Assembly: GCA_963849325.1 (NCBI GenBank)
Contig: CAWKHF010000009.1
Span: 128,001-192,000, forward strand
Direction of reading: 5' to 3'
Length of the DNA: 64,000 bases
Origin: an uncultured Planctomycetota bacterium
GTDB taxonomy: Bacteria; Planctomycetota; Planctomycetia; Gemmatales; Gemmataceae
A model generated the notes under the pieces. That model saw nothing but the letters and a program-made list of their open reading frames with translations, was not told where the DNA came from and did not search any database. This document shows positions 3,790-36,988 of this stretch, in pieces. The position numbers and the translations under genes are program-made. Positions within the stretch are counted from its first letter, which is position 1. The number at the start of each line of letters is the position of its first letter.

Positions 3790-3804
3790 TGGTATGAAAC
3801 TTGC
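3790..3804 (+). promoter_or_regulatory. sigma54 -24/-12 promoter
   Basis: TGGTAT-gaaac-TTGC, ~80 bp upstream of the SRPBCC gene, same orientation. Confidence 0.75.
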
Positions 3805-3886
3805 CATAAAGACTCCTCTCATGGCCGGCCTCAGCCGTCTGGCGCGAGTGTACCGGCCCCCCATTGCCGTTTGCAAGGAGTTTCCG

Positions 3887-4657
3887 ATGGCAACCACTGC
3901 AACCGCTCCCGCTCGCATGCGCCGTCCACCGTTCGGACAGACCCCCCGGCCGGCGCCCACGGTCAACGTCGGCGATACCGAGCGCCTGCTGTCCTTCGTC
4001 GGCGGCACCGCCCTGGGCCTGTTCGGCCTATCGCGCGGCTCGCTGGGAGGTCTCGCCCTCGCCGCCGCCGGCGGCTCTCTCGTCTATCGCGGGGCGACCG
4101 GCCATTGCTCCCTCTATCAGGCACTCGACATTAGTACCGCCCCGCAACTGGCCCCGTCCACCAGCATCCGCGCCGGGCACGGCGTCAAGATCGAGGAGAG
4201 CGTCATCGTCAACCGCGATCCCGCGACGCTGTACCGCTTTTGGCACAACCTGGAGAACGTCGGCCGCTTCATGTCCCACCTGGAGCGCGTCGAGGAGCGC
4301 GACGGGGGCCACTCGCACTGGGTCGCGCGGGGACCGATGGGGATGAAGTTCCACTGGGAGGCCGAGATCATCAACGAGAAGGAAAACGAGCTGATCGCCT
4401 GGCGCTCGGTGGAAGGCAGTGAGATCGACACCGCCGGCTCCGTGCATTTCCGCGAGCTGCCGCACGACCGAGGTACGGAGGTGCGCGTGGTGCTAAAGTA
4501 CGACGCCCATTCGGCCCAGCTGGGTGCGCCGCTGGCTCGGCTGATGGGCGCGTCGCCGCGCCAGCAGATCCATGAAGACCTGCGGCGGTTCAAGCAAGTC
4601 ATGGAGACCGGCGAGGTCGCCACCACCGAGGGGCAGCCGCGAGGCCAGTGCCACTAA
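3887..4657 (+). CDS. DUF2892/YgaP-like membrane domain + SRPBCC (polyketide cyclase/dehydrase) protein
   Basis: AAGGAG RBS before ATG 3887; NVGDTERLLS...RGATGHCSLY motif; LYRFWHNLEN...FMSHL...SHW...IAWRS SRPBCC pattern. Confidence 0.88.
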   Translation: MATTATAPARMRRPPFGQTPRPAPTVNVGDTERLLSFVGGTALGLFGLSRGSLGGLALAAAGGSLVYRGATGHCSLYQALDISTAPQLAPSTSIRAGHGVKIEESVIVNRDPATLYRFWHNLENVGRFMSHLERVEERDGGHSHWVARGPMGMKFHWEAEIINEKENELIAWRSVEGSEIDTAGSVHFRELPHDRGTEVRVVLKYDAHSAQLGAPLARLMGASPRQQIHEDLRRFKQVMETGEVATTEGQPRGQCH

Positions 4658-4672
4658 CAGGAGGACTGGATC

Positions 4673-5843
4673 ATGAAAGCAGTTTGCTGGTGCGGCACCG
4701 GCTCGATGCACGTCGAGCAGGTCGCCGAGCCGCGCATCCTCAACCCGCGCGACGCCATCGTGCGCATCACGCTGACGGCCATCTGTGGCTCCGACCTGCA
4801 CCTGTACGACGGCTTCATTCCAACGATGGAGAAAGGCGACATCGTCGGTCATGAGTTCATGGGCGAGGTGGTCGAAGTTGGCCATGAGGTCGCCAACCTC
4901 CATCCCGGAGATCGCGTGGTAGTGCCGTTCACGATTTCCTGCGGCCGCTGTTTCTTCTGTCAACGGCAGTTGTATTCGGTCTGCGACAACTCCAATCCCA
5001 ACGCCTGGATTGCCGAGACCCTGTACGGTTACTCCGGCGCCGGCCTGTTCGGTTATTCGCACATGATGGGCGGTTACGCCGGCGGCCAGGCCGAGTTCGC
5101 TCGCGTCCCCTTCGCCGACGTCGGCCCAATCAAGGTGCCGGAAAACCTCAGCGACGAGCAAGTGTTGTTCCTGTCCGACATCTTCCCGACCGCCTACCAG
5201 GCGGCGGAAAATTGTGGCATCCAGGCCGGCGATACCGTCGCCGTCTGGGGTTGCGGGCCGGTCGGCCTGCTCACCATCAAATGCGCTTACCTGCTCGGTG
5301 CCGAGCGCGTCCTCGCCATCGACCGTTTCCCGGAACGGCTGCGCATGGCCCACGACAAGGCCGGCGCCGAAATCCTCAACTACGAACAGACGGACGTGCT
5401 TGAGGCGCTGAAGGAAAGGACCGGCGGTCGCGGACCCGACGCCTGCGTCGATGCCGTCGGTCTGGAAGCGCATGGGACTGGCCTGCTAGGCAAATACGAC
5501 CGCGTTAAGACGCTGCTGATGCTGGAGACCGACCGCGCCTATGTGCTGCGGCAGGCCATCCAGGCTTGCCGCAAGGGCGGCACCGTGTCAATCCCGGGCG
5601 TCTACGGCGGCCTGATCGATAAGCTGCCGTTCGGCTCGGCCTTCGGCAAAGGGCTCGACGATGCGCATGGGACAGACGCACGTTCCGCGTTACATGCCTC
5701 AGCTGCTCGACCTCATCGCCAAGGGCGACTTCGACCCCTCCTTCGTCATCACCCATCGCGGGCGGTTGGAGGACGCGCCACGCCTCTACGAGACGTTCAA
5801 GCACAAGCAGGACGAATGCATCAAGTGTGTGCTTCGGCCGTAA
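4673..5843 (+). CDS. Zn-dependent alcohol/formaldehyde dehydrogenase (YbdR/FDH-like); one frameshift near 5657
   Basis: [30 protein letters not shown]-terminus (MRMGQTHV...CIKCVLRP) continues in another frame after one extra G. Confidence 0.92.
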
Positions 5844-5854
5844 ATCGCACTTCC

Positions 5855-5889
5855 AAACAGCTCCGGGCGCTCGCCCGGAGCTGTTTTTT
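5855..5889 (+). terminator. Rho-independent terminator
   Basis: AAACAGCTCCGGGCG-ct-CGCCCGGAGCTGTTT stem followed by a T run, directly after the dehydrogenase stop. Confidence 0.8.
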
Positions 5890-6031
5890 CTCAGCCTCAT
5901 CAACCTCGTTCCACTCATCTTATCCTTCCTGTTCTCAACCATGCGCAGGGCAGGTGTCATTCCCTCGACGTTTTCGACCTGAGGGCCGCACTGTCAACGC
6001 CATGACAGTAGTTGAAGCACTCCATGCCGAG

Positions 6032-6046
6032 CGGCACATATTTTGC
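6032..6046 (+). promoter_or_regulatory. sigma54 -24/-12 promoter
   Basis: CGGCAC-atatt-TTGC upstream of the TIGR03000 gene. Confidence 0.78.
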
Positions 6047-6119
6047 CCAAATTCTGTAAACGCCCCGAACGGAAGTTGACGTGGTGTTTCCTTGGTACTT
6101 CGCTCAGAGGAGGTAGGCA

Positions 6120-6974: not shown

Positions 6975-7949
6975 TCACCAGAACAAAACGCGGAACTTCA
7001 CGGCTCCGTACAACCGCCAGTAGACCGAGAGAAACGGGATGAGCACGGAAGTGAAAAGCATTTCCAGAACGTGAGCCGGCGCGTGCGAGGTGCCGCGTAA
7101 ACGCCGGGCGAGGAAGTGCGCAGGAGGACCGTCCACGCCACGAAGGCAGCGAGGCAAGCCATCATCACTCCGCAAGCCGCCGCGACGAGGGCGGCGAAGA
7201 CGGCCAGGATCATGCCATAGTAATCCAGCGGGGGCCAACGCCGGATGTGCTTGCGGTAGAGGGCCGAATGCTTCTTGGACAGCAGAGCGTCAAACAGACT
7301 CTTGCGCTGCATCCGCAAGCTGACGCCCCACGGCGCCGGACGGACAGGGTGTACGACCACGGCGGTAGGCACTTTCCTCAACTTGGCCCCATGCTTCAGC
7401 AATCGAAAATGCAGGTCGCTGTCCTCACGCCAGGCGGACGTGAAGCGCTCGTCGAAGCCGCCCAGCGTTTCGAGAACATCGCGGCGACAGAAACAGTTGG
7501 CGGTGACGAACTCGGCCCCTTCCAGTCCGGCCTCATTGCGTTCGTAGTCCGTCGGCGTCGGCGGCAGGGGCACGACCACTTGCCCGGTAACGGCAGCCAA
7601 CTCGGCATCACGCTCCAGCGCGCCGGCCCCGGCCTCCAGCCAACCGGCGTGGGGGACTGTGTCATCGTCGGTGAAGGCAATCAGAGGAGCATGGGCGGCG
7701 CGCCAGCCCACGTTCCGCGCCGCCGCCGGGCCGTGCGTCTTCGTGACGGGCAGATAACGAACCGCACCCATCCCTTCCGCCGCGAAGTCTTCCACCTGCC
7801 GGCGCGTCGCTTCACTCGCGGCATCGTCGGCGATGAGTACCTCATACTCGTCCGGCGCCATCTCCTGGGCGGCGAGGGCGGCGAGGCAGCGGCCCGAGCA
7901 GGTGCGGACGGCGGAACGTGGGCACGACGACGGAAACGCGCAGCCTCAT
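6975..7949 (-). CDS. Glycosyltransferase family 2 with C-terminal TM segments; frameshifts near 7895 and 7110
   Basis: VSVVVPTFRRP, VLIADD, GPAAARNVGW, IAFTDDD, GGFDERF..AWREDSDL. Confidence 0.88.
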
Positions 7950-9677
7950 GCCGACGGCTTCTCCAGCAAGTACGAGCCGATCACCAGGGCGTCCAAGGGC
8001 GACGTCCAGAAGCACTCCACCGCGTCGCGCGGCGTACATACGATCGGCTCGCCGCGCGTGTTGAACGACGTGTTGACCAGCACCGGCACGCCGGTTCGCG
8101 CCTGGAACGCCTTGAGCAAATCGTAATAGCGCGAGCACTGTTCGCGGTTGATCGTCTGGATGCGCGCCGTTCCGTCCACGTGCCGCACGGCCGGGATGCG
8201 CTTGGCCTTGTCCGGCCTGACTTGATGCACGAACAGCATGAACGGCGAACTTTCTGCGCCGACGAACCAGTTGCCGGCCTCCTCTTCCAGCACGACAGGA
8301 GCGACCGGCCGAAAGTCCTCGCGGTCCTTGATCTCGTTGAGCCGGGCCTGCATGTTCTCGTGGATCGGCGAGGCCAGGATCGACCGCGCCCCCAGCGCCC
8401 TCGGCCCGAACTCCATGCGGCCCTGGAACCAACCGATGATCTTGTCCTTGGCCAGGATGTCGGCGGTCTCCTCCGCGACGTGGTGGAGATGGCGGAAGGG
8501 GACCTTGGTCCAGCGCAGGAACTCCTCGATCTCGGCGTCATTGTAGGCCGGCCCCAGGTAGGCATGGTGCATGACGTGGGAGCGCTCTCGAGACGCCGCG
8601 TTCGAGGCCGTCGATCCACAGGGCGGCGCCCAGGGCGGTGCCGGCGTCGCCGGCGGCCGGCTGCACCCAGATGCGACGAAAGGGACCGTGATCGCGCAGC
8701 CGGGCGTTCATGACGCAGTTGAGCGCCACGCCGCCGGCCAGGCATAGATCCTCCTCCTTGGACGCCTCGCGCAGCCAGCGGGCCAACTCCAGCACCGTCT
8801 CTTCCAGGACCACCTGAAGCGACGAGGCGATGTCGTAATGTTTCGGCTCGATCTCGCCGCCGCGCAGCCGGGCCGGCCCGAATCGTTCCTCCAGCCGCAG
8901 CGCGCCGATGGTAAATTGCCCCTTCTCGCCGAGCTGCACGATCTCGCGGAAGTCGCGCAGGTAGTTCGGCTTGCCGAACGAGGCCAGGGCCATCACCTTG
9001 TACTCGTCCGAGGAGTGCAAAAAGCCGAGATGGCCGGTGACGGCCTCGTACAGAAGACCGAGCGAGTGCGGCATGTGGACCTGGCCGAGCCACTCCAGGC
9101 TGGTGCCGCGGCCGACGGCGTAGCCGGTGGTCGCCTTCTCGCCTCGGCCGTCCAGCGTGAGGACCGCCGCGTGCGGGAACGGCGAGACGTGAAAGGCACT
9201 GGCCGCGTGCGCCAGATGATGCGGCACGAAATGCCAGCGGAACGGCAGCTGATCCACGCACACGCCGCGGAGCCGCCCTTGCAGATGGTGCGGCACGCCG
9301 TCGCACAGGTGGCCTGGAGCATGGGAGATCGAGGCCAAAAACAGCGGGTCCCACACCGAATCAAAACCCTTCGGCGCCTCCTTGGGGCCGGGCTTCAAGG
9401 GGACCGGCACCGCCTCGCCGCAGTCGCGCGGCAGCAGCAGCTGCGGGTCGAACGAGTAGGCAACGTGGTCCACCTCCGCCAGCGCCAGCCCGGCCTGGCG
9501 CAAACAGAAATCGATAGCGTGGTAGGGCAATTCCCAGGTTGAGAACGGCACGGGGCGCTTGCCGTGCTTGATGTGCGTGAAGCGCTCCTCCTCGGCCGCG
9601 GCCACCACGCGGCCATCGCTGACCAGGCAGGCGGCCGGATCGTGGAAGGCGGCGTTGATCCCCAGTGTGTGCATCAC
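7946..9677 (-). CDS. O-carbamoyltransferase (NodU/CmcH/TobZ family); frameshift near 8580-8600
   Basis: LGINAAFHDPAA, AAAEEERF, HHLAHAASAF, LDGRGE, EYKVMAL, CLAGGVALNC, QPAAGDAG; C-terminal GRMEFGPRALGARS, FRPVAP, VNTSFN. Confidence 0.93.
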
Positions 9678-10813
9678 AGTCCTCCATCTTGAAACCGTGG
9701 TGCCGCTTGCGGCTTAGCGCTAAGCCGCAAGCGGCGCCGCGGGGTGGCTAATAGTTCCAGGGCGGCCCGCGCCACTGACTCCGGCGGCACGCGAGACAGA
9801 CAGTCATGATGGTCCTGCGGACAGATGCTTTTGAAGCAGTTTTTGCATGGCACGTCGTGGTAGAGCACTCGCTGCGGCACGTTCCAGGGCGTGTGCTGCG
9901 GATTGGTCTGTGCATACAGATCTACAACCGGCGTGCCGACGGCGGCCGCGATGTGCGCCGGCCCGGTGTTGTTGGTCACGAGCACCGGCGCCAGCGCGAC
10001 CAGGGCGGCCAACTCGGCTAGATTGAGTTGGCCGGCCAGCGAATGCGACGGGGCACGCATCGCCGCGCGGATGTCCTCGATCAGCTCGCGTTCCGCTTCG
10101 GAACCCGAGAAGACGAGGGGAAGATCGTACACTCGCGCCAGCAAACCAGCGGCTTCGGCGTAGCGTTCGGGCGGGTAGCGGCGCGAGGGAGCCGAGGCTC
10201 CGGGATGGATGAGCACCCAGGGTCGATGCGGCGTCAGACCGAGATCGCCCAGCATACTGCGGACGCGGTGGGTGGCCTGCGACGGGACGCGCAGCGACAG
10301 TCGTTCGTCCGTCGTTCGGCAGCCGACCGCCGCGACGAGATCGAGCTGCCGGCGCACCTCGTGGCGGATGAACGGCTCCGGCTCCGACTCCGGTACCCAA
10401 TTGGTCAGCAGTTGGTAAGGGTTCTCGCGGCAATGAGCCAGGCGGCGCGGGATGTCGGCCAGCAGACACAGCAGCGCCGCCGGCAAGGGGTTCTGGCTGA
10501 AGACCGTGAAGAGGACGGCGGCGTCGAAACGGCGCTGGCGCAGCCGTTCGATCATGGCAAACTCGGGCCGGCTGTCGGCGCGCGGCGCCGTCGCCTTCAT
10601 CCACGGTGCGTCGTAAACGATGGAGTCATCGATCTCCGGCAGCAGCGGCGCCAGCGCCGCGGCGGCGGGGGAAGTCAGCAACGTGAGACGCCGGCCCGGA
10701 CACGATTGCTTGAGGGCGCGAAAGGCGGGCGTGGTCATGAGCACATCGCCCAGCGCATCCAGCCGCACGCACAGCACGTTGTCGGCCTGCTGCCAGTCCG
10801 GGAGAGCGTTCAT
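9674..10813 (-). CDS. Glycosyltransferase family 9 (heptosyltransferase II-like)
   Basis: Starts MNALPDWQQADNVLCVRLDALGDVLMTTPA; HPGAS, VTNNTGPAHIAAA, C-terminal Cys cluster (CKNCFKSICPQDHHDC). Confidence 0.9.
   Translation of the reverse strand: MNALPDWQQADNVLCVRLDALGDVLMTTPAFRALKQSCPGRRLTLLTSPAAAALAPLLPEIDDSIVYDAPWMKATAPRADSRPEFAMIERLRQRRFDAAVLFTVFSQNPLPAALLCLLADIPRRLAHCRENPYQLLTNWVPESEPEPFIRHEVRRQLDLVAAVGCRTTDERLSLRVPSQATHRVRSMLGDLGLTPHRPWVLIHPGASAPSRRYPPERYAEAAGLLARVYDLPLVFSGSEAERELIEDIRAAMRAPSHSLAGQLNLAELAALVALAPVLVTNNTGPAHIAAAVGTPVVDLYAQTNPQHTPWNVPQRVLYHDVPCKNCFKSICPQDHHDCLSRVPPESVARAALELLATPRRRLRLSAKPQAAPRFQDGGL
9702..9735. repeat. Family C palindrome inside the 3' end of the GT9 gene
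   Basis: Perfect 34-bp palindrome GCCGCTTGCGGCTTAGCGCTAAGCCGCAAGCGGC, translated as RRLRLSAKPQAA. Confidence 0.85.
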
Positions 10814-12324
10814 GAGGTTATGTGTCCGTTCAGCAGAGGGAATACGGCTTGCGGCTTGGCGTCGAGGCCGCTGCGGATGCGGTCGATCATGCTCGTCGTC
10901 GAACGATCCTCGACCAGCGGCAAGATGCGGACGACGCCGCCCAACTCCTCCACCAGCGCGGCTTCCGGGAGACGATCGCGCGTGTAATCGCCGCCCTTGA
11001 CGAAGATGTCGGGCCGGACGAGACGAACCAGTTCGTGCGGCGTGTCCTCGTCGAAGGGCAGCAGATGGTCCACGCAGCGAAGGGCGGCCAGCACGGTCAG
11101 ACGGTCCTCCAGCGTGTTGATGGGCCGCGTCGGACCCTTGAGACGGCGGATGGAGGCGTCGGAGTTGACGCCGACGACGAGGACGTCGCCCAGCTCGCGG
11201 GCACGACGGAGGTAGCTGACGTGGCCGCGGTGGAGGATGTCGAAGCAGCCGTTGGTGAAAACGATGCGCCGCCCGCGGCGCCGGTGCTCGGCCAGTTCGG
11301 CGGCGAGGCGAGCGCGGCAGCCGTTGACCGTGCCGTCGGCGGTCAGGGCGTTGTGCAATTCCACAGTCGAACAGATGGACGTGCCCTCCTTGGCGACGAC
11401 CACGGCCGCCGCCGCCGAAGCGATTTCCGCCGCCGCCGGGAAATCGGCCCCCACGGCCAGGCCCAAAGTGAAGGCGGCCAGAAACGTATCGCCGGCCCCC
11501 GATGGACAACCGGGTGCCGAAGGCCGAGCGCCGGTGCGGTACGGCACTCGGCCGCGCTCGAAGACGACGGCGCCGTCCCGGTCCAGGGTGACGGCCGCGA
11601 TGCGAGCGCCGGTGGCCTTCAGCAGACGTTTTTCGTATCGCACGATCCGTTCGGCGCGAGCGGTGGGTACATCGTCGTCGGGCAGTCCCAGAAGCTGCAC
11701 GGCCTCGGCGTAATTCGGCTTCGCTGCCGTCAGGCCCACTTGTTGGTACGCGCGCAGTTGCTTCGAGTCGGCGACGAGCAGGCGCGGCACCCGCGCTTGC
11801 AGTTCGGTCAGTGTCGCGATCACCGTCGGCGTCAGCACGCCGTAGCCGTAGTCCGAAATGACCACGGCATCGCAACGCGAAAAGAGGGATGCCAACCGCT
11901 CGACCAACTGTCCTTCGCTCGGGGCATCGATGGGGCCGGTGTCGCCCTGGTCGAAGCGAACCAGGATCTGTCCGCCCGCGCAGACGCGCTGCTTGGACAG
12001 GGTCCGTCGGCCCGGCTGAACGAGCAAGTGGTCCGTGGACAGGCCATGCTCCTCCAGGCAACGGCGCAGAAGAAACGCCTCGACACCATCGCCCAGGACG
12101 GAGAGGAACGAAACGGTCGCACCGAGAGCGTGGAGGTTGACGGCGGTGTTGGCCGCGCCGCCGGCGGCGTCGCGGCGAGCGGCGACGGACACGACCGGCA
12201 CCGGAGCTTCCGGGCACAGCCGACTGCTGCCGCCCTCCAGGTAGCTGTCGAGCATGGCCTCGCCGAGGACCAGGACGCGCAGGCCGCGGAAGGCGTCGAG
12301 GTGTTTCACCAGCGCAGAAGTCAT
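10810..12324 (-). CDS. hldE: Bifunctional heptose-7-phosphate kinase / heptose-1-phosphate adenylyltransferase
   Basis: PfkB domain (RLCPEAPVPV, GGAANTA, ISDYGYG, GAGDTF) plus cytidylyltransferase-like domain (FTNGCFDILHRGHVSYL, GVNSDAS.RRLKG, VKGGDY). Confidence 0.92.
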   Translation of the reverse strand: MTSALVKHLDAFRGLRVLVLGEAMLDSYLEGGSSRLCPEAPVPVVSVAARRDAAGGAANTAVNLHALGATVSFLSVLGDGVEAFLLRRCLEEHGLSTDHLLVQPGRRTLSKQRVCAGGQILVRFDQGDTGPIDAPSEGQLVERLASLFSRCDAVVISDYGYGVLTPTVIATLTELQARVPRLLVADSKQLRAYQQVGLTAAKPNYAEAVQLLGLPDDDVPTARAERIVRYEKRLLKATGARIAAVTLDRDGAVVFERGRVPYRTGARPSAPGCPSGAGDTFLAAFTLGLAVGADFPAAAEIASAAAAVVVAKEGTSICSTVELHNALTADGTVNGCRARLAAELAEHRRRGRRIVFTNGCFDILHRGHVSYLRRARELGDVLVVGVNSDASIRRLKGPTRPINTLEDRLTVLAALRCVDHLLPFDEDTPHELVRLVRPDIFVKGGDYTRDRLPEAALVEELGGVVRILPLVEDRSTTSMIDRIRSGLDAKPQAVFPLLNGHITS

Positions 12325-14219
12325 GACCGCCCTCCAATGGTGACGGGCGCGGCCGACAGGATGAGCCGGGCTGCTTCGGCCAGGTCGGCGGCGACGTGGT
12401 GCGGCCGACGCCCGCGGCCGCGCCGCCATTCCGTCTCATTGCCGTTGTCGATCAATACCGTCCGGCAGCCGGCGCGGCGGCCGGCCTCGATGTCGTCGAG
12501 GATGTCGCCCACCATCCACGATTCGGCGAGATCGACGCCGAGTTCCGCGGCGGCCCGCCGCAACATGCCCGGCGCGGGCTTGCGACAGCGGCAGGCGACG
12601 GCGTAGGACGTGATCCTCCCTTGCGGATGGTGCGGACAGTAGTGGAAACCGGCCAGCGGGACGCCGAACACGGCCAGCAGACGCCGCAACGAACCCTCAA
12701 CCTCCCGCAGCGCCGCTCTCGGGAAACAGGCCGCGAGCCACCCCCGATTGGTTGGAGACCACGATGAGCCGCATAGCTGTTCTCATGCAGCGCCGTCAGC
12801 CCCTCCACGGCCCCCGGAGCGAATCGAATCCTTTGCGGATCGACATTATAGGGAACGTCTTCGATGAGCGTGCCATCCTTATCGAGAAAGACAGCCCTCT
12901 TCGGAAACTCTCCGGAAATAACTTCTCGTTTCGCCGTGACGCGCAGCGGAGCGTGTCGCGCGCTCCGCTGCGCATCGCGGCGAAACGTGGAGTTGCGGAT
13001 CACGGAGGCGTACAGCGCTTCGATGGCGGTGCTGACGCGCTGCCAGGTGTACAGGTTGCGCGCGCGGCGGATGGCTTGCCGACTGAACTCGCGGAGCAGG
13101 GCCGGCTGCCGCATCAGGTGGGACAGACGTTCCGCCAGCGCATCGGGGGACTTCGGTGGGACCAGGTAGCCGGTGATGCCGTCGCGCACCGTCGTCTGAA
13201 TGCCGCCGACGGCCGAGCCGATCACCGGCGTGCCGCACGCCATCGCCTCGACGGGCGTGATGCCGAACGGCTCGTACCAGGGCGTGGTGACAAACACGTC
13301 GGCGGCGGCGTAGTAGGTCCGCAACTCGGATCGGCCGCGGCTGCCGGTGAAGGTCACGACGTCGTCGATGCCCTCGGCCTGCGGCGATGGCGCGGAGTCG
13401 GCCGATCTCCGGCGTCAGGGCGGGGTCCGGCTCGCGCGATTCGCCGCCGACGATGAGCAGGCGGGCGCCTGTCCATGATCGCGGCGCAGCCGGGCCACGG
13501 CGCGAATCACGTCATCCACGCCCTTGCGCGGCACCATGCGGCCTAGTTGCAAGACGATCCATTCGTTCGGCGACAGCCCCAGCGCGACGCGAGCTTGCTG
13601 CTTGTCCATCGACCCGAACTCCTCCGGGTCGAAGCCGCACGGGATGACGCGGATGCGTCCGGGATCGGCCGCGTACAGTCGCAACAGGTCGTCGCGGTCC
13701 TGCGGACACTCGGCGATGAGGCGATCCGCCTCGGCCACGGCGCGCTCTTCAATCGCCAGCCGCTCCTCGGGGAAGGCGTCGGCGCCGCCCTGGTGCAGGC
13801 GGCGCACCCGGCCAAGGGCGTGGAAGGTGACCACCAGCGGCAGGCCGAGTGCTTTCTTCAACTCCGCGCCTACCAGCGCCGACAGAAAGAAATGCGCGTG
13901 GACCAGGTCGTAACCGACTCGGTGGGCATGGCGCAGGGCGTGAATCGTAAATTCCCCCATGAGAGGTAGCAATTGCTCCTTGGGACGGCGCTCGGGAGGC
14001 CCAGCCGGAACGTGGAGAATGCGCACGCCGTCGAGCCACTCCACCACGGGCGGCCATTCGGGGCTGTCGCGGCGGGTGAGGACGTTCGATGCGATGGCCG
14101 CGCCGCGCCAGGTGGCGAGCCACCTGGCCGACGTAGACGTTCTGGCCGCCGCCGTCGGCGCCGCCCAGCCCCGCCAGCGGCGAGGCGTGCTCGCTAATCA
14201 TCGCAATCCGCATGCGCAT
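12321..14219 (-). CDS. GT4 glycosyltransferase apparently fused to HAD-IIIA heptose-1,7-bisphosphate phosphatase (GmhB-like); several frameshifts
   Basis: ISEHASPLA..GG.D.GGQNVYV, GRMVPRKG, PWYEPFG..PVEAMACG; then AVFLDKDGTL, YCPHHP..C.CRKP.PGML, SWMVGDIL.DIEAG. GT4 and HAD parts share one open frame through a palindrome. Confidence 0.8.
12928..12986. repeat. Palindromic repeat family A copy, in frame inside the CDS
   Basis: GTTTCGCCGTGACGCGCAGCGGAGCG...CGCTCCGCTGCGCATCGCGGCGAAAC; translates as FRRDAQRSARHAPLRVTAKR. Confidence 0.88.
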
Positions 14220-14254
14220 GGGATGCCTCCAACGAGTAACCCCGACCAGACTCC

Positions 14255-14308
14255 TCCGAGCCGGAAGCGTGGGCGAAGGAATGGCTTCGCTTACGCTTCA
14301 GGCTCGGA
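14255..14308. repeat. Palindromic repeat family B
   Basis: TCCGAGCCGGAAGCGTGGGCGAAG...CTTCGCTTACGCTTCAGGCTCGGA; contains the TGA of the upstream GT gene. Confidence 0.85.
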
Positions 14309-15272
14309 TAGCTATGTGGGCAAACGTCTCTTCCCAATCCCGAGTGAACCGCTCGATGCCGAAGCGTTCCAGGGCGCGGCGGCGAGCGTTTTCGCCCAGC
14401 CGTCGCGCCAGGGCCGGCTCCTCCAGCAGTCGCCGCATCGGCTCGATCAGCCGCCGTACGTCCGTATCGACGTAGCCGTGTACGCCGTTCTCGATGACCG
14501 TCACTAGCTCCGTCGTCGCCAGGCCGACGATAGGCAGGCCGATGGTCATGGCTTCCAGGACGGCCAAGCCGAGGCTGGTGTAACGAACCGGGTGGAAGAA
14601 GAAGCGGTAGCGGGCCGCGAAGGCCGGCAGCTCCGGCGGCGACACCTCGCCGAGACCTCCCAGCGATTTGGCGTCCATCCCCACCAGGTCGAGCGGGACG
14701 TCCCGCCGCGCCTGCTCGAAGACGTCCAACCCCAACCGCCGGCCGCGCTGCCGCAGGTGATTGATGACAACCAGGCCGCGCGCGGCCTCGCCGCTGTAGC
14801 GGACCCCCCTTGGGATCAGGACGCCGTGGTCGATCACCCGCGTCGGCGTTCGGCCGTTGTCCCACATCAGGGCGTTAAATGCCGTCACGTGGACCAGCAG
14901 TCCCTCGGGTTCGTCGAACCAGTGGCGCGTGTCGGTTGGGTGTCCCTGCGGCGGATCGTGCTCCAGGTAAATCCGCGGCCGGCGGCGCTGGGCATCGGAG
15001 AGAATCTCGTATTGATCGACCTCGTAGTTCTTCCGCGTCTGGAACAGGATGCAGTCGAAATCCAGCTCGCGCACCGCGTCGGCGGGTACGTCGTGGACGT
15101 TCACGCCGAAGGGGAATGTTTGGCCGCGCCCACCGTAGCCCTCGCCGCCGTCGCGACGCACCGGCAGGTAGAACTCGACCCGCGCTTGCGACAGGTAGAG
15201 CAAGTAATTGCCGTGAATGTGCCAGGTGAAGACGCGAAGCGGCGGCATGGTTTCCTTGCCTCGAAGGGTCAT
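14298..15272 (-). CDS. GT4-type glycosyltransferase
   Basis: LRVFTWHIHGNYL, LEHDPP, LVHVT.FN.LMWD, RYTSLGLAVLEAM..G.P; TGATG coupling with the upstream gene. Confidence 0.85.
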   Translation of the reverse strand: MTLRGKETMPPLRVFTWHIHGNYLLYLSQARVEFYLPVRRDGGEGYGGRGQTFPFGVNVHDVPADAVRELDFDCILFQTRKNYEVDQYEILSDAQRRRPRIYLEHDPPQGHPTDTRHWFDEPEGLLVHVTAFNALMWDNGRTPTRVIDHGVLIPRGVRYSGEAARGLVVINHLRQRGRRLGLDVFEQARRDVPLDLVGMDAKSLGGLGEVSPPELPAFAARYRFFFHPVRYTSLGLAVLEAMTIGLPIVGLATTELVTVIENGVHGYVDTDVRRLIEPMRRLLEEPALARRLGENARRRALERFGIERFTRDWEETFAHIAIRA

Positions 15273-16398: not shown

Positions 16399-16413
16399 CG
16401 GAATGGTGTTTGC
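16399..16413 (+). promoter_or_regulatory. Possible sigma54 promoter for ppa, overlapping the opposite-strand one
   Basis: CGGAAT-ggtgt-TTGC (GG-N10-GC); shares the GC at 16412-13. Confidence 0.5.
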
Positions 16414-16426
16414 AAAGGAAGTGCCA
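16412..16426 (-). promoter_or_regulatory. sigma54 -24/-12 promoter of the glycosylation operon
   Basis: Minus strand TGGCAC-ttcct-TTGCA, a consensus match ~90 bp upstream of the 16323 start. Confidence 0.85.
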
Positions 16427-22425: not shown

Positions 22426-22458
22426 AGCTTCACCGGGCGAGGGTCAGCGACCCGGACG

Positions 22459-24593: not shown

Positions 24594-24674
24594 CCGTAAG
24601 TTTGTTTAGCCGCGACGCGCAGCGGAGCGCGGCTGCCGCGCTCCGCTGCGCGTCGCGGCTAAACAAACTTACGG
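24594..24674. repeat. Palindromic repeat family A, perfect 39-bp stem
   Basis: CCGTAAGTTTGTTTAGCCGCGACGCGCAGCGGAGCGCGG-ctg-exact reverse complement; spans from the fumC stop into the SDR stop. Confidence 0.95.
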
Positions 24675-25700: not shown

Positions 25701-25724
25701 GACACAACCTCTCCGTCAAAGACG

Positions 25725-26867
25725 TCACGAACCTCCCGAAGGCGATTCGGCGTGAACCAGATCGGGCTTCTTGATCGGCGGGCGCTGAATCTCCTGGTCC
25801 GGCGCCGGTCGCCGCTCGCGCTCGAACGGCCCCAGTCGCACCGGCTGGCCCGACTGGGCCGACTGGTACAGGGCACGGATGACGCGGACATCGGCCAAAC
25901 CCTCCTGGCCCGACGGCTCCGGAGCTTCGCCCTTCAAAACGCAGTTGGAGAAGTAGAGTAGCTGCGGCCCGAACTGATCGCGCTTCGAGAAGGCCGTCTC
26001 CTTCGTCTTGCCATCCATCGTCAAATAATGCTTGAGTTCGCCGACGAAATCGTAAGCCGGGTCGAGCCGCAGGTCGCCCTTGCTGCCGACCACGCGATAA
26101 GCGGATACCGATGCGGTGCTGAAACTACACGTGAACGCCGCCACCCGATCGCCGGGGAAACGCAGGATAGCGCTGGCCATCTCCTCGACCTCCCGGAACC
26201 GTTCCTCGCCGTTATTGGCGCAGACGGCGAAGACTTCGCTCGGCTCGGCCCGGAAGAGGTAGCGAGCGGCGTTGATGCAGTAAATGCCGATGTCGTAGAG
26301 AGTGCCGCCTCCGGTCTCCTTCCGCAGCCGGATGTCGCCCGGCTTCACCTCTTGCGTGAACGTGGAATTGAAAAGGCGAACGTCTCCCAGCTGGCCCGAC
26401 TGCACGAATTCAATGGCCTTCAAGTTCGCCTCCTCGAAATGGAGACGGTAGGCAACCATCAACTTCACCTCGTTGTCCTTGGCCTCGGCGATCATGACCT
26501 CGCAGTCTTCCTCGGTCAGGGCCATCGGCTTTTCGCAGAGGATGTGAACACCGGCTCGCGCCGCTCGCACCGTGTAGTCGCGGTGCATGCTGTTAGGCAA
26601 ACCGATGTAGACGGCGTCCACCTCGCCGTTGTTCAGGCAGTCCTCGTACTGCTCATACGAATAGAGGCGTTTCACACCGTACTGCCGGCCGAGTTCCTTG
26701 AGCTTGTCGGCATCGCTGGAGACGAGAGCGGTCAGTTCCGAGTTTTCTTTCGCATTGGCGAAAGCCGGGAGAAGGGCCACCTGCGAGATGTAACCGAGGC
26801 CGACCACGGCGTAACGGACCTTGCCGTTGGCTCCCTGGCGCGTGCGTTGCCTGTTCGCGTTTTTCAT
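25725..26867 (-). CDS. Gfo/Idh/MocA (glucose-fructose oxidoreductase-like) protein
   Basis: YAVVGLGYI, DAVYIGLPN.MH, HILCEKPMA, GGG.LYDIGIY. Confidence 0.92.
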   Translation of the reverse strand: MKNANRQRTRQGANGKVRYAVVGLGYISQVALLPAFANAKENSELTALVSSDADKLKELGRQYGVKRLYSYEQYEDCLNNGEVDAVYIGLPNSMHRDYTVRAARAGVHILCEKPMALTEEDCEVMIAEAKDNEVKLMVAYRLHFEEANLKAIEFVQSGQLGDVRLFNSTFTQEVKPGDIRLRKETGGGTLYDIGIYCINAARYLFRAEPSEVFAVCANNGEERFREVEEMASAILRFPGDRVAAFTCSFSTASVSAYRVVGSKGDLRLDPAYDFVGELKHYLTMDGKTKETAFSKRDQFGPQLLYFSNCVLKGEAPEPSGQEGLADVRVIRALYQSAQSGQPVRLGPFERERRPAPDQEIQRPPIKKPDLVHAESPSGGS

Positions 26868-26942: not shown

Positions 26943-26957
26943 GCAATGCCGATGCCA
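26943..26957 (-). promoter_or_regulatory. sigma54 -24/-12 promoter
   Basis: Minus strand TGGCAT-cggca-TTGCA upstream of the Gfo gene. Confidence 0.82.
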
Positions 26958-27170
26958 CGAGCTCTCTTCGTGCCCGATGAAAATGCTGGGCTTTTTTCGG
27001 ACTGCAAGGCGGGAAGGAAACGCGAACTTTGAGGAAGAGTGGTACGCAATGGAGCGCAGCGGGGTGCGCTGGCGTCTTGAAGCTCTATGTCGCCGAGGCA
27101 TCCCGTTTCCCATCGTCCACGCGGGGTCGCAGGCTTGCGAACCGCCGCGAAACACTTGAGGACGGCACTA

Positions 27171-27185
27171 TGGCATCTCAATTGC
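27171..27185 (+). promoter_or_regulatory. sigma54 -24/-12 promoter
   Basis: TGGCAT-ctcaa-TTGCT upstream of the SDR gene. Confidence 0.82.
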
Positions 27186-30217: not shown

Positions 30218-31765
30218 TCAAAGCTCTCGCATGAACGCGACCAGGTCCGCTTTCTCTTCCTTGGTCAGCTTCAGCTCCAGAACGAGATTGAAGAACTCAA
30301 CCGTGTCTTCCAGGGTCAGACAGCGACCATCGTGCAGATAAGGCGGGCTGTCTTTGATACCGCGCAAGGTAAAGGTTTTGATCGGTCCCCCCGGTGCATC
30401 CGCAACGAACCGCTCGACATGAAGGTCGTGCATCTGATTGTCCAGATAGAACGGCGCGGGATGGCAGACGGAACACTGCGCCTTGCCGAAAAAGAGCTTT
30501 TCGCCCCGCAGCTCGCTCTCCGTCGCCTTGTTGCGGTTGAGGCGGCCGAGGATGGTCAGCTTGGGAGCCGGCGGCCAGTCGAACATCATCTGCACGCGCT
30601 CCATGCGCACGGCCTGTTCCGGCAAAAGAAGGAAAGCTCCCTTCTTCTCGGCGTGCATCTGATCACCGTTGAAGTAGGCGGCTCGCGGCTGCTCGAATTC
30701 GCTGAAATCCTTGACGGAGCGAATGCTCCGCTTGGACCCGTGGATCTGCTGATTGTACAGGCCGCGCAGGCTCGGCGTGTCCAGACGCAGACGGCGCTGC
30801 TGCGGCCGATTGTCCGGGTTCAGCTCGATCTGTCCCGCTGTGTGGCCGTTGACGTGACAATCGAGGCAGGTCACGCCCTGCGTTGGCTCCTTACTCTTGC
30901 GATCATCGGTGGCGTTGAACTCCTCCTGCGGCATCGGCGTCAACAGCAGCCGTAAACCGTCCAGCTCAATCGGCGTCAGGATGCCTTTGAACAGTCGATC
31001 AAAATTGTTGATGGAGACGACCTCGCCGCGCGACACGTCGCCCAGTTCCGGCCGGTTTTGCAAAAACATCGCCGGCGGAAATTCCGGCAGAAATTCTTCG
31101 GGCAGATCGAAATCCACGTCGAACCGCTCCAGCCGTGGAAACATGGCGATCTGCATTTTCGGAAACACCATGCCGCCGGGCGTGTGCTTGGGATGGGGTA
31201 GAGACGGGTACGGGAAGATGCCGGCTTTGCGGATCTCGGCGGGACTCATGTCCGCCAGCTTGGTCCAGGTCACGTCCTCGGGAAGTCGAGCGGTCGGTCC
31301 GACGGCCAGCGGCTTACCGCGCGACATCCGCGCCGAGGCGTCGAGCTTCGGTTTCAGGTTGTAACGCTTCTCCAGCAGCTTCCGTTGAGCCGTCATCACC
31401 TTCGACTTTTGGCCAACGTCCTCCTTGTAGATCTCCTCGAACGTCTGCATCGGCTTCTTGGCGCCGAGGGGGTCGCGGGAAAAATCGAAGCCGAGGAACT
31501 TCCCCTCTTCGGGCTGGTCCTTCAACACGGTGGAGGAAGGCTGCGCATTGGCCGGGTCAAAGACATCGGAGCTATCGTGCTTCGACTTCTCCTGCTCTGG
31601 ACGCTCCGCTCTCACGTCGCGCGGCCGCTGAGCCTCGGCGATGGCATCGCGTGGGGGGCGAGTGGGTGATTTTTTCTGGGCCTCCTGGGAATAAACGATT
31701 AGCCCCGTGAGGCCCAGGACAGCGACGAGCGCGGTGAGCGCCCAGCGTTTTTCGATCCTTTTCAT
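30218..31765 (-). CDS. Exported diheme c-type cytochrome (cytochrome c peroxidase/MauG-like superfamily)
   Basis: N-terminal signal/TM; CLDCH and CSVCH; DTPSLRG, G..LF.GKA.C..CH, KTFTLRG...SPPYLHDG. Confidence 0.85.
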   Translation of the reverse strand: MKRIEKRWALTALVAVLGLTGLIVYSQEAQKKSPTRPPRDAIAEAQRPRDVRAERPEQEKSKHDSSDVFDPANAQPSSTVLKDQPEEGKFLGFDFSRDPLGAKKPMQTFEEIYKEDVGQKSKVMTAQRKLLEKRYNLKPKLDASARMSRGKPLAVGPTARLPEDVTWTKLADMSPAEIRKAGIFPYPSLPHPKHTPGGMVFPKMQIAMFPRLERFDVDFDLPEEFLPEFPPAMFLQNRPELGDVSRGEVVSINNFDRLFKGILTPIELDGLRLLLTPMPQEEFNATDDRKSKEPTQGVTCLDCHVNGHTAGQIELNPDNRPQQRRLRLDTPSLRGLYNQQIHGSKRSIRSVKDFSEFEQPRAAYFNGDQMHAEKKGAFLLLPEQAVRMERVQMMFDWPPAPKLTILGRLNRNKATESELRGEKLFFGKAQCSVCHPAPFYLDNQMHDLHVERFVADAPGGPIKTFTLRGIKDSPPYLHDGRCLTLEDTVEFFNLVLELKLTKEEKADLVAFMREL

Positions 31766-31827
31766 GACAGGTTCTCGTTCGGCTCCGATGAGGGAAGGAG
31801 ATCGTTTGGGTTCCTCTCAGCTTTTTT

Positions 31828-32250
31828 TCAGCGCGCGGTGGGATCTTGGCCGATAGTGCTGTCGCCGTGATGTCTGCCTCCGGGAGCGATGCCGTGGCGC
31901 TGATGCCCGCCGGAAGCGCGGCCCTGAGCGATGGCGCCGCCCGCGGCGCCGCCGGCGTGTCCGGCGTAAGGGGGACCACCCTCCTCGCTGTCCTCGCCGC
32001 GCGCGTCACTGCCCATCGCGCGATCGAGGTTGGCACCCGCCGGGTCTCCATCGTCGATATTGGTGCCGGCTAGGCCGCCAACCTCGGTGCCGCCGCCGGG
32101 AGTGCCCACGGCTTCTTCTCCTGAGGGCGTCCGATCCGGTGTCTCGCCGGGTCGCAGGTCGTGGTCGGAGGCGGCCTTGGTTGCGCCCGGAGGTACGGGG
32201 TCGGTCTTTTCCTTGTCCTTGCGACGCGGACTTTTTCGTGTACTCGCCAT
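31828..32250 (-). CDS. Gly/Asp/Ala-rich hydrophilic hypothetical protein
   Basis: AGGAGG RBS before MASTRKSP; GTPGGG, YAGHAGGA.GG motifs; own sigma54 box. Confidence 0.7.
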   Translation of the reverse strand: MASTRKSPRRKDKEKTDPVPPGATKAASDHDLRPGETPDRTPSGEEAVGTPGGGTEVGGLAGTNIDDGDPAGANLDRAMGSDARGEDSEEGGPPYAGHAGGAAGGAIAQGRASGGHQRHGIAPGGRHHGDSTIGQDPTAR

Positions 32251-32324: not shown

Positions 32325-32339
32325 GCAAATGTTGTACCA
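32325..32339 (-). promoter_or_regulatory. sigma54 -24/-12 promoter
   Basis: Minus strand TGGTAC-aacat-TTGC. Confidence 0.78.
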
Positions 32340-32358: not shown

Positions 32359-32373
32359 AGGCGCGTGATTTGC
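32359..32373 (+). promoter_or_regulatory. Probable sigma54 promoter, divergent partner
   Basis: AGGCGC-gtgat-TTGCA upstream of the HAD gene. Confidence 0.6.
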
Positions 32374-33149: not shown

Positions 33150-33221
33150 CGCAGAAGGGCGGCATCCTCTTTGCTCATCCTTGTGGGTAATGACCAACAA
33201 TCCTTCTTCCGCGAGGCAGTC

Positions 33222-34623: not shown

Positions 34624-34638
34624 GCAAAAGAAGTGCCG
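34624..34638 (-). promoter_or_regulatory. sigma54 -24/-12 promoter (CHAD)
   Basis: Minus strand CGGCAC-ttctt-TTGCA. Confidence 0.82.
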
Positions 34639-34688: not shown

Positions 34689-34703
34689 CGGCATTTCTTT
34701 TGC
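34689..34703 (+). promoter_or_regulatory. sigma54 -24/-12 promoter (CBS)
   Basis: CGGCAT-ttctt-TTGCA, nearly identical to the divergent site. Confidence 0.82.
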
Positions 34704-35185: not shown

Positions 35186-35197
35186 CGAAAAATCTTC

Positions 35198-35262
35198 GTT
35201 TAGCCGCGACGCGCAGCGGAGCGCGGGACGCTCCCGCGCTCCGCTGCGCGTCGCGGCTAAAC
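35198..35262. repeat. Palindromic repeat family A
   Basis: GTTTAGCCGCGACGCGCAGCGGAGCGCGGGA-cgc-TCCCGCGCTCCGCTGCGCGTCGCGGCTAAAC. Confidence 0.93.
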
Positions 35263-35284
35263 GAGCCGTCTCGGGAGAATCGTA

Positions 35285-35563
35285 ATGAACCATCCACCGA
35301 CCGTTCCCCGCCGGCGCGAGACCTTTTTGGCACTGGTCCTCGCCGTCGCGCTGGCCAGTATGGTAACTCTCTTCTTCCTGTTGGTCAGCGGGCAATACTT
35401 TTTCGCGGTGCTGGCCGTGCTGGGTGGTCTCCTTCTTCTTGGCTGCCTTCAGTACCTCCTCTGGGGCCGGCCAATGGGTCGTAAGGAGACGCATCCAATG
35501 CCGCGTAATCCTCGGGCCGAGGCGCCCGCACCCACTTTGCCCAGATCGCCGGACCTTCCTTGA
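35285..35563 (+). CDS. Small two-TM membrane protein
   Basis: GGAGA RBS; two hydrophobic segments followed by YLLWGR. Confidence 0.6.
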   Translation: MNHPPTVPRRRETFLALVLAVALASMVTLFFLLVSGQYFFAVLAVLGGLLLLGCLQYLLWGRPMGRKETHPMPRNPRAEAPAPTLPRSPDLP

Positions 35564-35585
35564 ACTTCCACGGAGAGGCATCCGT

Positions 35586-36923
35586 ATGAACCGGACGAGA
35601 CGATTTTCGTCCCCTTCTGTTGAGAAGGCACTGATCGTTCACGTGCGGGAACGGACCCTGCCGCTGCGGACGGCGGACGACCTCGACCCTCTGCTGGAGC
35701 GCATCGGCGACGCCCACTATGTTTTGCTCGGCGAGGCTTCGCACGGCACGGCGGAATACTACACCTGGCGGACGCGCCTTTCGCAGCGACTGATCCGTGA
35801 GAAGGGGTTCTCTTTCCTCGCCGTCGAGGGCGACTGGCCCGATTGCTACCAGGTCAACCGCTACGTCAAGCGCCTACCCGATTCGGGCGCGAATGCCCGC
35901 GACGTACTGCACGCCTTCGAGCGCTGGCCGACCTGGATGTGGGCCAACGAGGAAATCGTCGCCTTGGTCGAGTGGCTCCGGCGACACAACGACCTGCTGC
36001 CCCCGGACAGGAAGGTCGGCTTCTACGGACTGGACGTGTACAGCCTGTGGGAGTCGCTGTATGCCATCCTCTCTTATCTCCAGCGGGTAGACCCGTCCAC
36101 GCTGCCGGCCGCCTGGAAGGCGTTTCGTTGCTTCGAGCCGTATGGCGAGGACGTGCAGCGTTATGCGCGGGCCACCGTACTGGTGCCTACGTCCTGCGCC
36201 GAGGAAGTCGTCGGCCTGTTGGGCCAGTTGCGCCGCAAGGCGCGGGAGTACCGCCAGGACGGCCGGGAGAGCTACTTCCAGGCGGAGCAGAACGCTCTGG
36301 TCGTCCAGAACGCCGAGTCGTACTACCGGGCGATGGTGCGTGGCGGGCCGGAGTCGTGGAACATCCGCGATCGCCACATGACCGAGACCCTGGAGCGGCT
36401 CATGCGCCATCATGGGCCGGATGCCAAGGCGATCGTCTGGGAGCACAACACGCACATCGGCGATGCCCGCTTCACCGACATGGCCGAGGACGACATGGTG
36501 AACGTCGGCCAGCTCATCCGCGAAGGGCACGGGGAGGAGGGCGTGGTACTCGTCGGTTTCGGCAGCCATCACGGCAGCGTCATCGCCGGCGACGAATGGG
36601 ACGCGCCGATGGAGCGAATGACGGTCCCGCCGGCGCGAGCGGGCAGCTGGGAGTCCGTCCTGCACGCGGCCGGGGCGGACGACAAATTACTCCTCTTCTC
36701 CTCCGCGGACTCGTCGGGTCCGATGTCCGAGCGGCGCGGCCATCGCGCCATCGGGGTCGTATATCATCCCAAGTATGAACATCTCGGCAATTATGTGCCG
36801 ACGGTACTGCCGCGCCGTTACGATGCCCTCCTTTACCTCGACGAAACGGAGGCCCTGCATCCGCTGCATTTGGTCCCCCGTGTCGAAGGAGAGCTGCCGG
36901 AAACGTATCCGTCCGGCGTGTGA
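35586..36923 (+). CDS. Erythromycin esterase family protein
   Basis: LLGEASHGT.EYY, AVEGDWPD, WPTWMWAN, FYGLDVYS, WN.RD.HM, WEHNTHIGD, RAIGVVY. Confidence 0.9.
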   Translation: MNRTRRFSSPSVEKALIVHVRERTLPLRTADDLDPLLERIGDAHYVLLGEASHGTAEYYTWRTRLSQRLIREKGFSFLAVEGDWPDCYQVNRYVKRLPDSGANARDVLHAFERWPTWMWANEEIVALVEWLRRHNDLLPPDRKVGFYGLDVYSLWESLYAILSYLQRVDPSTLPAAWKAFRCFEPYGEDVQRYARATVLVPTSCAEEVVGLLGQLRRKAREYRQDGRESYFQAEQNALVVQNAESYYRAMVRGGPESWNIRDRHMTETLERLMRHHGPDAKAIVWEHNTHIGDARFTDMAEDDMVNVGQLIREGHGEEGVVLVGFGSHHGSVIAGDEWDAPMERMTVPPARAGSWESVLHAAGADDKLLLFSSADSSGPMSERRGHRAIGVVYHPKYEHLGNYVPTVLPRRYDALLYLDETEALHPLHLVPRVEGELPETYPSGV

Positions 36924-36941
36924 GCCGAGCAAGGGCGAGAC

Positions 36942-36980
36942 GATACCGGCACCCGGCGCATGGCGCCGGGTGCCGGCATC
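36942..36980. terminator. GC-rich hairpin after the esterase gene, overlapping the next promoter
   Basis: GATACCGGCACCCGGCGC-atg-GCGCCGGGTGCCGGCATC followed by TTGTTT. Confidence 0.55.
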
Positions 36981-36988
36981 TTGTTTGC
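36974..36988 (+). promoter_or_regulatory. sigma54 -24/-12 promoter (cyclic glucan synthase)
   Basis: CGGCAT-cttgt-TTGCT ~70 bp before ATG 37061. Confidence 0.8.

Follow-up and report, generated by a model that had tools for sequence, protein, structure and literature searches.

The general stress regulons of SigB and RpoS carry a familiar protective cargo and, like that of EcfG, use a sigma70-family factor that is released from an anti-sigma factor or stabilized. Sigma54 (RpoN) follows another logic, in which the promoter-bound holoenzyme stays closed and is opened only by a phosphorylated enhancer-binding ATPase. Here, we characterize a cluster of stress-type genes behind sigma54-type boxes in a 64,000-nucleotide stretch of DNA ("the window") from an uncultured planctomycete of the family Gemmataceae (GenBank assembly GCA_963849325.1, contig CAWKHF010000009.1, positions 128,001 to 192,000). 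Its regulon resembles those of SigB, RpoS, and EcfG/NepR/PhyR, the last defined in PMC8103513, in its cargo (DUF892, ferritin-like, and CBS proteins, short-chain dehydrogenases [SDRs], trehalose enzymes, and DUF1328) and in having kinases and single-domain receivers near the regulator. It differs in its promoters, which are of the sigma54 type and need an AAA+ activator. Among the cargo, YciF/DUF892 has been tied to oxidative stress protection (bioRxiv 2023.01.20.524870).

Sigma54 control of stress genes in planctomycetes has been hinted at before. Carrera-Reyna et al. (2025; PMC12316311) reported that predicted sigma54 promoters in the Planctomycetia are enriched at genes for chaperones, Clp and Lon proteases, UspA, MscS, CsrA, and CBS-domain proteins. 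In the accessible parts of that article, the term "general stress" is absent from the text, six COG identifiers have no match in the supplements, and no activator or enhancer is named for these genes. In Rhodopirellula baltica, Wecker et al. (2009; PMC2754498) described the general stress cluster RB4432-4438, Mn catalase, Dps, and thioredoxin as co-induced by heat, cold, and salt, and a single sentence, citing Studholme and Dixon (2004), states that these stress genes might be controlled through rpoN. This is one proposed promoter in a different planctomycete order, with no regulon map, activator, or enhancer in the portion of the article available. Our literature search returned no paper on a sigma54-run general stress regulon, its activator, or the enhancers described below in planctomycetes; the figures of PMC12316311 and aRpoN-DB, which lay outside the search, may list more. 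An earlier note on this DNA, made from the sequence alone, knew of no description in the phylum. In the literature searched, that statement holds for a worked-out regulon, and it needs qualifying for the idea itself, which these two studies hint at. A known promoter class and a known cargo are thus joined here in a way that was hinted at, but not worked out, in the literature searched. The present analysis contributes a map of the promoters, one activator candidate identified by locus, and a pair of candidate enhancers; of these, the activator is what is new.

Results

The cluster is the densest patch of a large sigma54 regulon of about 100 promoters and probably belongs to a general-stress arm of it. 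With a strict box defined as YGGYAY-N5-TTGC, and minus-strand positions given as the low coordinate, the window holds 13 strict matches, compared with 0.92 ± 0.87 expected; none of 100 dinucleotide shuffles reached 13. Twelve of the matches are intergenic and have the exact GG-N10-GC spacing, and the remaining one (54568-) lies inside a kinase gene. The 11 boxes listed in the earlier note are all in place, intergenic, and correctly oriented, and a twelfth, 33160+, which was absent from that list, lies 47 bp before a cupin gene. Five weaker GG-N10-GC boxes and an N11-spaced box at 18823- are also present as described, and the distance from box to first gene, put at roughly 35 to 175 bp, measures about 47 to 173 bp. 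The assembly of the window contains many frameshifts. Box 6032+ looks coding because the Zn-dehydrogenase gene before it is frameshifted; once this is read through, the real stop falls near 5843 and the box is intergenic. Pfam searches of 68 open reading frames (ORFs) of the window agreed with the gene labels proposed from sequence, finding DUF892, Zn-dependent alcohol dehydrogenase (Zn-ADH), two SDRs, CBS, cupin, Hsp20, Gfo, and GH94/glucoamylase pieces, a protective cargo that is typical, in part by general knowledge, of SigB, RpoS, and EcfG regulons.

The excess of boxes extends across the genome (G000; 8.16 Mb, 85% complete), in which genes were called with a simple purpose-written caller. 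The strict pattern occurs 198 times, and 136 of these matches are intergenic (138 by a slightly different rule). Each of ten other spacer lengths gave only 17 to 40 intergenic matches, which leaves about 100 sigma54 promoters in excess. The boxes are also oriented: 114 of 138 intergenic boxes point at a same-strand gene, compared with 87 of 156 wrong-spacing controls.

Boxes recur upstream of orthologues in planctomycetes and not in other phyla. The first gene of the cluster, of the SRPBCC family, has its closest homologues in the Gemmataceae, which agrees with the planctomycete placement in the earlier note, and 7 of 8 planctomycete homologues have a box upstream. In contrast, non-planctomycete SRPBCC loci, in which some genes may be operon-internal, gave a loose match at 6 of 72 and a strict match at 0 of 72. 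Within the family, a looser box lies at most 250 bp from 19 of 30 DUF892 genes, compared with 0 to 3 at six wrong spacings; the same was seen at 12 of 21 DUF892 genes in an earlier, overlapping set and at 3 of 5 in genomes reached via named planctomycete loci. Differently composed DUF892 clusters with four to seven strict boxes per 20 kb were present in 5 of 17 further regions of relatives. Phylum-wide counts of the pattern against a reversed control vary widely and mix in coding matches, and we base no claim about the phylum on them. In a genome of the same genus (G007; about 80% protein identity), the window block is collinear, and sigma54 boxes are the main conserved blocks of the aligned intergenic DNA. 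Seven window boxes are conserved there (Table 1), strict boxes precede the units equivalent to those of 19899+, 23044-, and 26943-, and 23071+, 34689+, and 36974+ have no counterpart. Conservation upstream of orthologues, a check proposed in the earlier note, is present at the DUF892 and SRPBCC genes and at many of the window boxes in G007.

These comparisons bear on whether the boxes arose by chance or are functionless relics. Genome-wide, chance alone is expected to yield about a quarter of the strict matches in intergenic DNA (17 to 40 of 136), and a chance origin would suit a match inside a gene (54568-) and the boxes 23071+ and 36974+ that were not found in G007. Such an origin is nonetheless largely refuted by the spacing-specific conservation upstream of SRPBCC and DUF892 orthologues and in G007, together with the shuffles and the same-strand bias, and we regard it as extremely improbable. 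Spacing-specific intergenic enrichment, conservation, and the presence of rpoN in the genome (see below) bear out the assignment of the boxes to sigma54, and those of the window are very likely working promoters, as judged from sequence.

The earlier note had called the locus an island. The window instead holds the densest patch of a regulon that runs through the genome: 12 strict matches fall within 33.2 kb, and the next best patch elsewhere has 5 (C9 95-170 kb excluded). We saw no sign of a mobile genomic island: the cluster has no tRNA, the 68 ORFs scanned include no integrase (boundary repeats were not searched for), GC content is just slightly lowered (0.63-0.65 over 16-36 kb, compared with 0.64-0.69 elsewhere in the window), and the block is collinear in G007. 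To describe the rest of the regulon, we scanned the first ORFs behind 105 of 126 other intergenic boxes, the 21 with poor coding scores being dropped, and 58 matched a family. Chaperone-type genes were among them (HSP70, Cpn60, Clp_N, and HSP20, including dnaK, groEL, and clpB). By our reading of the family matches, about 20 were of general-stress type, including a second DUF892, Zn-ADH, CBS, Hva1_TUDOR, DUF2795, DUF4142, ferritin, trehalose phosphatase, alpha-amylase, GlgE, dienelactone hydrolase, S30AE, and a DksA finger. Boxes also precede nitrogen genes (two ammonium transporters, a NirB-like reductase, ANTAR, and NnrS) and respiratory, polysaccharide, polyketide, and regulator genes. One strict box lies just 16 bp before rpmJ-rpsM (L115:301-315, G000 C2:133786), nearer the start than an ordinary leader would allow, and we rest nothing on it.

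The genome encodes one rpoN, itself behind a sigma54 box. Activators number about 17, estimated from 23 domain matches that include split and non-activator ones, and activators with an intact GAFTGA-type loop are present. Both rpoN and activators had been named as things to confirm in the earlier note, which also observed, correctly, that no NtrC-type activator is in the window; the only one on the same contig lies about 178 kb beyond it, and others are elsewhere in the genome. Across the phylum, rpoN was found in 148 of 151 genomes. In P. limnophila, Plim_0695 (COG1508) has an insertion index of 0.0034 in Fig. S3 data described as covering essential genes (PMC10632474). Several unusual activator loci were seen. 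A sensor-less enhancer-binding protein (L115; G000 C2 ~142700-143830, minus strand) starts about 17 residues before its AAA domain, is frameshifted, lies behind a sigma-like gene, and would need control in trans; this activator (C2:143270) was considered and set aside as master regulator, as it sits among unrelated genes. A divergent activator adjoins a sigma54-like ORF at G000 C6:467266-468966. An activator without a helix-turn-helix (HTH), acting from solution, was also rejected, given that 16 of 17 activators checked have an HTH; the exception, in which the search pattern detected none, is the frameshifted C10:552625.

One activator stands out as a candidate for the general-stress arm. Encoded on another contig than the window (G000 C12:226094-227491, L235), it has the receiver-AAA-HTH (REC-AAA-HTH) order, an intact phospho-acceptor Asp, a GSFTGA loop, and a Fis-type HTH (HTH_8, 36 bits), which place it in the NtrC family. 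Set against the general background of NtrC, ZraR, AtoC, and the activator cascades of Myxococcus, it shares with classical systems the -24/-12 promoter and a REC-AAA-HTH activator with a GAFTGA/GSFTGA loop. Unlike NtrC, ZraR, and AtoC, it falls below the cut-off of all 25 NCBIfam models listed (best, AtoC, 487 bits against 714), has an HTH signature of its own, and would act at many promoters that are not linked to it. We found orthologues in 39 of the 61 genomes of the family. In a quick tree that also took in 12 other G000 activators and 29 phylum matches, 29 orthologues formed one clade apart from these, with a Shimodaira-Hasegawa-like approximate likelihood ratio test value of 100. The HTH signature, common to the orthologues, was also found in Tautonia and two other planctomycete records and not in the best matches of Lacipirellula or G243; a phylum search with the candidate gave generic NtrC matches of 40-50% identity.

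The neighbourhood of the candidate is of stress type. Adjacent genes are glgX/treY-like (by eye), a treZ-like gene with a box, a receiver, a kinase, a degenerate kinase-like gene, and a DUF1328-like ORF (by eye; no Pfam match at 1e-5). DUF892, DUF1328, holin_3_6, or ferritin lies within 1.5 kb in 7 of 29 relatives' activator loci, compared with 0 of 14 for a control activator, in scans that covered 57 of 90 listed ORFs for the candidate and 31 neighbours at a stricter cut-off for the control. Neighbours in other relatives are Usp, AI-2E, fumarase, or M24 peptidase. The control activator, next to Usp (twice), CBS, ADH, protoglobin, and ANTAR, looks like a separate hypoxia arm. The candidate and DUF892 also co-occur (28 genomes with both, 11 with the activator only, 4 with DUF892 only, and 18 with neither; P = 6.5e-5). 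The test corrects for neither kinship nor genome size; the genomes of relatives are not independent of one another, and their size could confound the association. Restricted to 31 shared genomes, the test gave P = 0.02 for the candidate, compared with 0.48 for the control activator. Strong autoregulation was rejected, as only 5 of 28 orthologues have a box 30-60 bp before the start. Directly behind the candidate, a kinase-like gene (L176:12004-13116, G000 C12:224625-225737) encodes a protein that has a His-box, is degenerate at its ATPase end, and matches nothing in Pfam or NCBIfam; genes like it lie beside several activator orthologues, and its product is possibly a phosphotransferase. A strict box (L176 ~13269, G000 C12:225890, +) is directed at the activator gene's 3' end and is followed by no convincing ORF; it possibly serves a small or antisense RNA.

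Expectation maximization (EM) on the upstream DNA of 27 activator orthologues returned a 20-bp palindrome, gtG.GcAa....tTgC.Cac, with a log-likelihood of about 90, compared with 32-44 for shuffled DNA. Among 79 held-out box promoters of relatives, 13 carried a site of 10 bits or more, compared with 2.0 ± 1.6 for shuffled matrices, none of 200 of which did as well. Word and dyad enrichment searches for a shared enhancer gave a second palindrome as their only lead. TGTCA-N3-TGACA has three genome copies, each beside a sigma54 box: at dnaK, at a receiver-groES unit, and at 16432-16446 of the window. The listed sites of the fuller form, CTGTCAA-N-TTGACAG, are the window copy and G000 C2:94743, C12:1196276, C12:57768, and C8:207715; above a second cluster of the glycosyltransferase/ABC type (C9:102495) there is a related site. 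At groEL, hsp20, and clpB, degenerate copies precede the box by 83-143 bp. Scored with a matrix of the palindrome, 8 of 138 boxes (including five training sites) have a match of 14 bits or more, compared with 3 of 2,870 background regions. Relatives have exact copies before dnaK (G015, G031, and G034), hsp20 (G013), clpB (G034), and csrA (G017), with gene names assigned by eye, and 6 of 12 palindrome loci there have no such gene link. We regard CTGTCAA-N-TTGACAG as a candidate heat-shock enhancer. In the window, it is absent at 10 of 11 boxes scored, and its single copy abuts the -24 element of 16412-, too close for a normal enhancer.

Several observations weigh against a general-stress arm fired by one activator. 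The 20-bp palindrome is not enriched at the 12 boxes of the window (none reaches 10 bits; two reach 8 bits, with 39 of 200 shuffles as high), is only weakly enriched at 45 hand-picked G000 stress promoters (3 of 45; 18 of 200 shuffles), and de novo EM on 119 promoters gave no shared motif. Four genomes have DUF892 without a detected activator orthologue, three of them with a box before DUF892, and Lacipirellula and G243 have boxes and no activator orthologue that we found. The single shared enhancer upstream of the boxes that the earlier note anticipated was not recovered, and its terms "desiccation" and "dormancy" are conjectural labels. Its broader proposal, that general stress is run by sigma54 and an enhancer-binding protein, stands as far as the boxes, rpoN, and activators elsewhere in the genome are concerned; the part that invoked one master regulator does not follow, because the palindrome is not enriched at the window boxes. 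Such results would suit a different arrangement, in which sigma54 is a second near-housekeeping sigma factor and arriving accessory genes gain sigma54 promoters under several activators, without one co-regulated response. The boxes before nitrogen, respiratory, polysaccharide, and polyketide genes, the near-universal rpoN that is essential in P. limnophila, the many activators, and a heat-shock-type palindrome at one window promoter fit this arrangement too. Against it stand the extreme local density (12 boxes, compared with at most 5 per 33 kb), the boxes that track stress-type clusters of differing composition in relatives, and a dedicated activator clade associated with the same cargo. On balance, we think it unlikely.

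A further complication is an RpoS-like group-2 sigma factor (C12:183470-184351), which fits the RpoS model best and below its cut-off (269 bits against 379), and with the genome 85% complete other regulators may be missing. We otherwise found no sign of control by SigB, RpoS, or EcfG: the promoters are of the sigma54 type, and no SigB, SigF, or SigG over cut-off, no HrcA, and no CIRCE was present in G000 (EcfG and PhyR were not searched for). It could be that RpoS-like group-2 or extracytoplasmic function (ECF) sigma factors mainly run the stress response, with sigma54 as a secondary input or with closed complexes that repress during growth. R. baltica offers a parallel, in that ECF genes were up in all three stresses and rpoN was not induced, and was down under salt (PMC2754498). 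Several window boxes, moreover, are back to back, 13-50 bp apart with no intergenic room for enhancers, or lie 10-50 bp past a stop codon, so enhancers there must be degenerate, intragenic, or dispensable. Yet sigma54 boxes are what is mainly conserved between the aligned intergenic regions. Sigma54 output is set by its activators, and unchanged rpoN mRNA is therefore expected. We consider leadership by RpoS-like or ECF factors quite improbable.

The features of the cluster are collected in Table 1. Box 6032+ recurs in two further loci (L025 and L026), and the TIGR03000-type gene behind it is one of two glycine/aromatic-rich genes of this kind that each follow a sigma54 box (window 6120-6911 and G000 C10:411494). 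The homologue of the FAD oxidoreductase-Rieske gene in L214 carries a strict box. In G007, the receiver orthologue has a strict box at a shifted position, hsp20 is missing and a strict box precedes the ABC gene, the CBS gene directly follows the cupin gene without its own box, and the glucan synthase orthologue has no upstream box that we found. The glucan synthase is in pieces in G007 as well, probably through assembly frameshifts. The 140-aa and 515-aa proteins encoded at 30218-32250 have no family match in Pfam or NCBIfam; the larger has two CxxCH motifs and is conserved at 70% in G007. Two families of short intergenic palindromic repeats are present, one with about 390 genome copies (window 3728-3753, 14288, and 16495) and one with about 480 (17148, 24609-24659, 28813, and 35203-35257). 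EgtB/EgtD-like ergothioneine genes (FGE-sulfatase/DinB and histidine methyltransferase) lie at 57076-59348 with no strict box.

Table 1 Boxes, genes, and candidate enhancer sites of the stress-type cluster, in window coordinates
Feature	Position	Strand	Evidence
Sigma54 box before SRPBCC/YgaP-like gene and Zn-dehydrogenase	3790..3804	+	Strict match, Pfam
YgaP-TM/SRPBCC gene (3887-4657), then Zn-dependent dehydrogenase (4673 to ~5843, frameshifted)	3887..5843	+	Pfam
Sigma54 box before TIGR03000-domain gene (6120-6911)	6032..6046	+	Strict match; NCBIfam
Glycosyltransferase/carbamoyltransferase/PfkB-CTP-transferase/HAD run (polysaccharide or heptose genes), several frameshifts	6998..16323	-	Pfam; collinear in G007
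Doubtful weak GG-N10-GC box, overlapping 16412-, before pyrophosphatase (16534-17079)	16399..16413	+	
Sigma54 box before glycosyltransferase run	16412..16426	-	Strict match; conserved in G007
Perfect palindrome CTGTCAA-A-TTGACAG, candidate heat-shock enhancer	16432..16446	.	Identical to dnaK-upstream copy
FAD oxidoreductase-Rieske gene; N11-spaced box 18823-18838	17214..18785	-	Pfam
DUF892 (YciF-like) gene	18866..19372	-	Pfam
Weak box before DUF892	19444..19458	-	Conserved in G007
Weak box before small hydrophilic ORF (19570-19791)	19507..19521	+	Conserved in G007
Sigma54 box before single-domain receiver gene (20087-20467)	19899..19913	+	Strict match, Pfam
Hsp20 gene (22459-22947) and ABC/SbmA-like transporter (frameshifted)	20582..22947	-	Pfam
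Sigma54 box before Hsp20-ABC unit	23044..23058	-	Strict match
Weak box before fumarase C (23121-24593)	23071..23085	+	Not conserved in G007
Gfo/Idh/MocA oxidoreductase and SDR	24669..26867	-	Pfam
Sigma54 box before Gfo-SDR unit	26943..26957	-	Strict match; G007 strict box before SDR
Best local match (10.0 bits) to candidate general-stress enhancer, between divergent 26943- and 27171+	27094..27113	.	Not significant alone
Sigma54 box before SDR, PCC-domain, and M24 peptidase genes (27245-30159)	27171..27185	+	Strict match; near-identical in G007
140-aa hydrophilic protein (31828-32250) and 515-aa secreted protein (30218-31765)	30218..32250	-	
Sigma54 box before 31828-32250	32325..32339	-	Strict match; conserved in G007
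Weak box before HAD hydrolase (32431-33149, frameshifted)	32359..32373	+	Conserved in G007
Strict sigma54 box before cupin gene (33222-33563)	33160..33174	+	Conserved in G007
Sigma54 box before CHAD-domain gene (~33586-34510, frameshifted)	34624..34638	-	Strict match, Pfam
Sigma54 box before CBS-pair gene (34763-35185)	34689..34703	+	Strict match, Pfam
Sigma54 box before NdvB/ChvB-like glucan synthase (~37061-46091, in pieces)	36974..36988	+	Strict match, Pfam

Discussion

The explanation that best covers these results as a whole is that the boxes are sigma54 promoters of the general-stress arm of a large regulon split among activators, and we consider it probable. We propose that stress signals would reach kinases and receivers, that an activator would thereby be phosphorylated, and that sigma54 promoters already bound by polymerase would be opened together. 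The regulon may be divided among activators, with a heat-shock arm that would use the CTGTCAA-N-TTGACAG enhancer and a separate general-stress arm. For the latter, the most likely activator would be C12:226094-227491, fed by the neighbouring kinases and receivers and binding a GTGAGCAA-N4-TTGCTCAC-like palindrome. Judging from gene content and promoters, the window cluster is quite likely induced by stress. That this activator drives most of the window promoters is a tentative proposal, somewhat less likely than not.

Together, the findings suggest that the broad stress response of this planctomycete does not rely on the usual stress sigma factors and requires an ATP-driven activator instead. 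A bolder and rather doubtful extension is that sigma54 replaced SigB, RpoS, and EcfG across the Gemmataceae and Isosphaerales. One lineage-specific activator, reached through a relay of kinases, pseudo-kinases, and receivers, would then fire tens of scattered promoters, at many of which local enhancers are degenerate or absent, and a second activator would run heat shock in place of RpoH/HrcA. If sigma54 did take the place of these factors, it would represent a fourth way of controlling general stress in bacteria, built on an ATP-gated switch that does not leak, and horizontally acquired stress genes would have been rewired by gaining -24/-12 boxes. If the general-stress arm is as we describe it, a sigma54-based design would be added to the SigB, RpoS, and EcfG paradigms, and would help to explain why rpoN is essential in P. 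limnophila.

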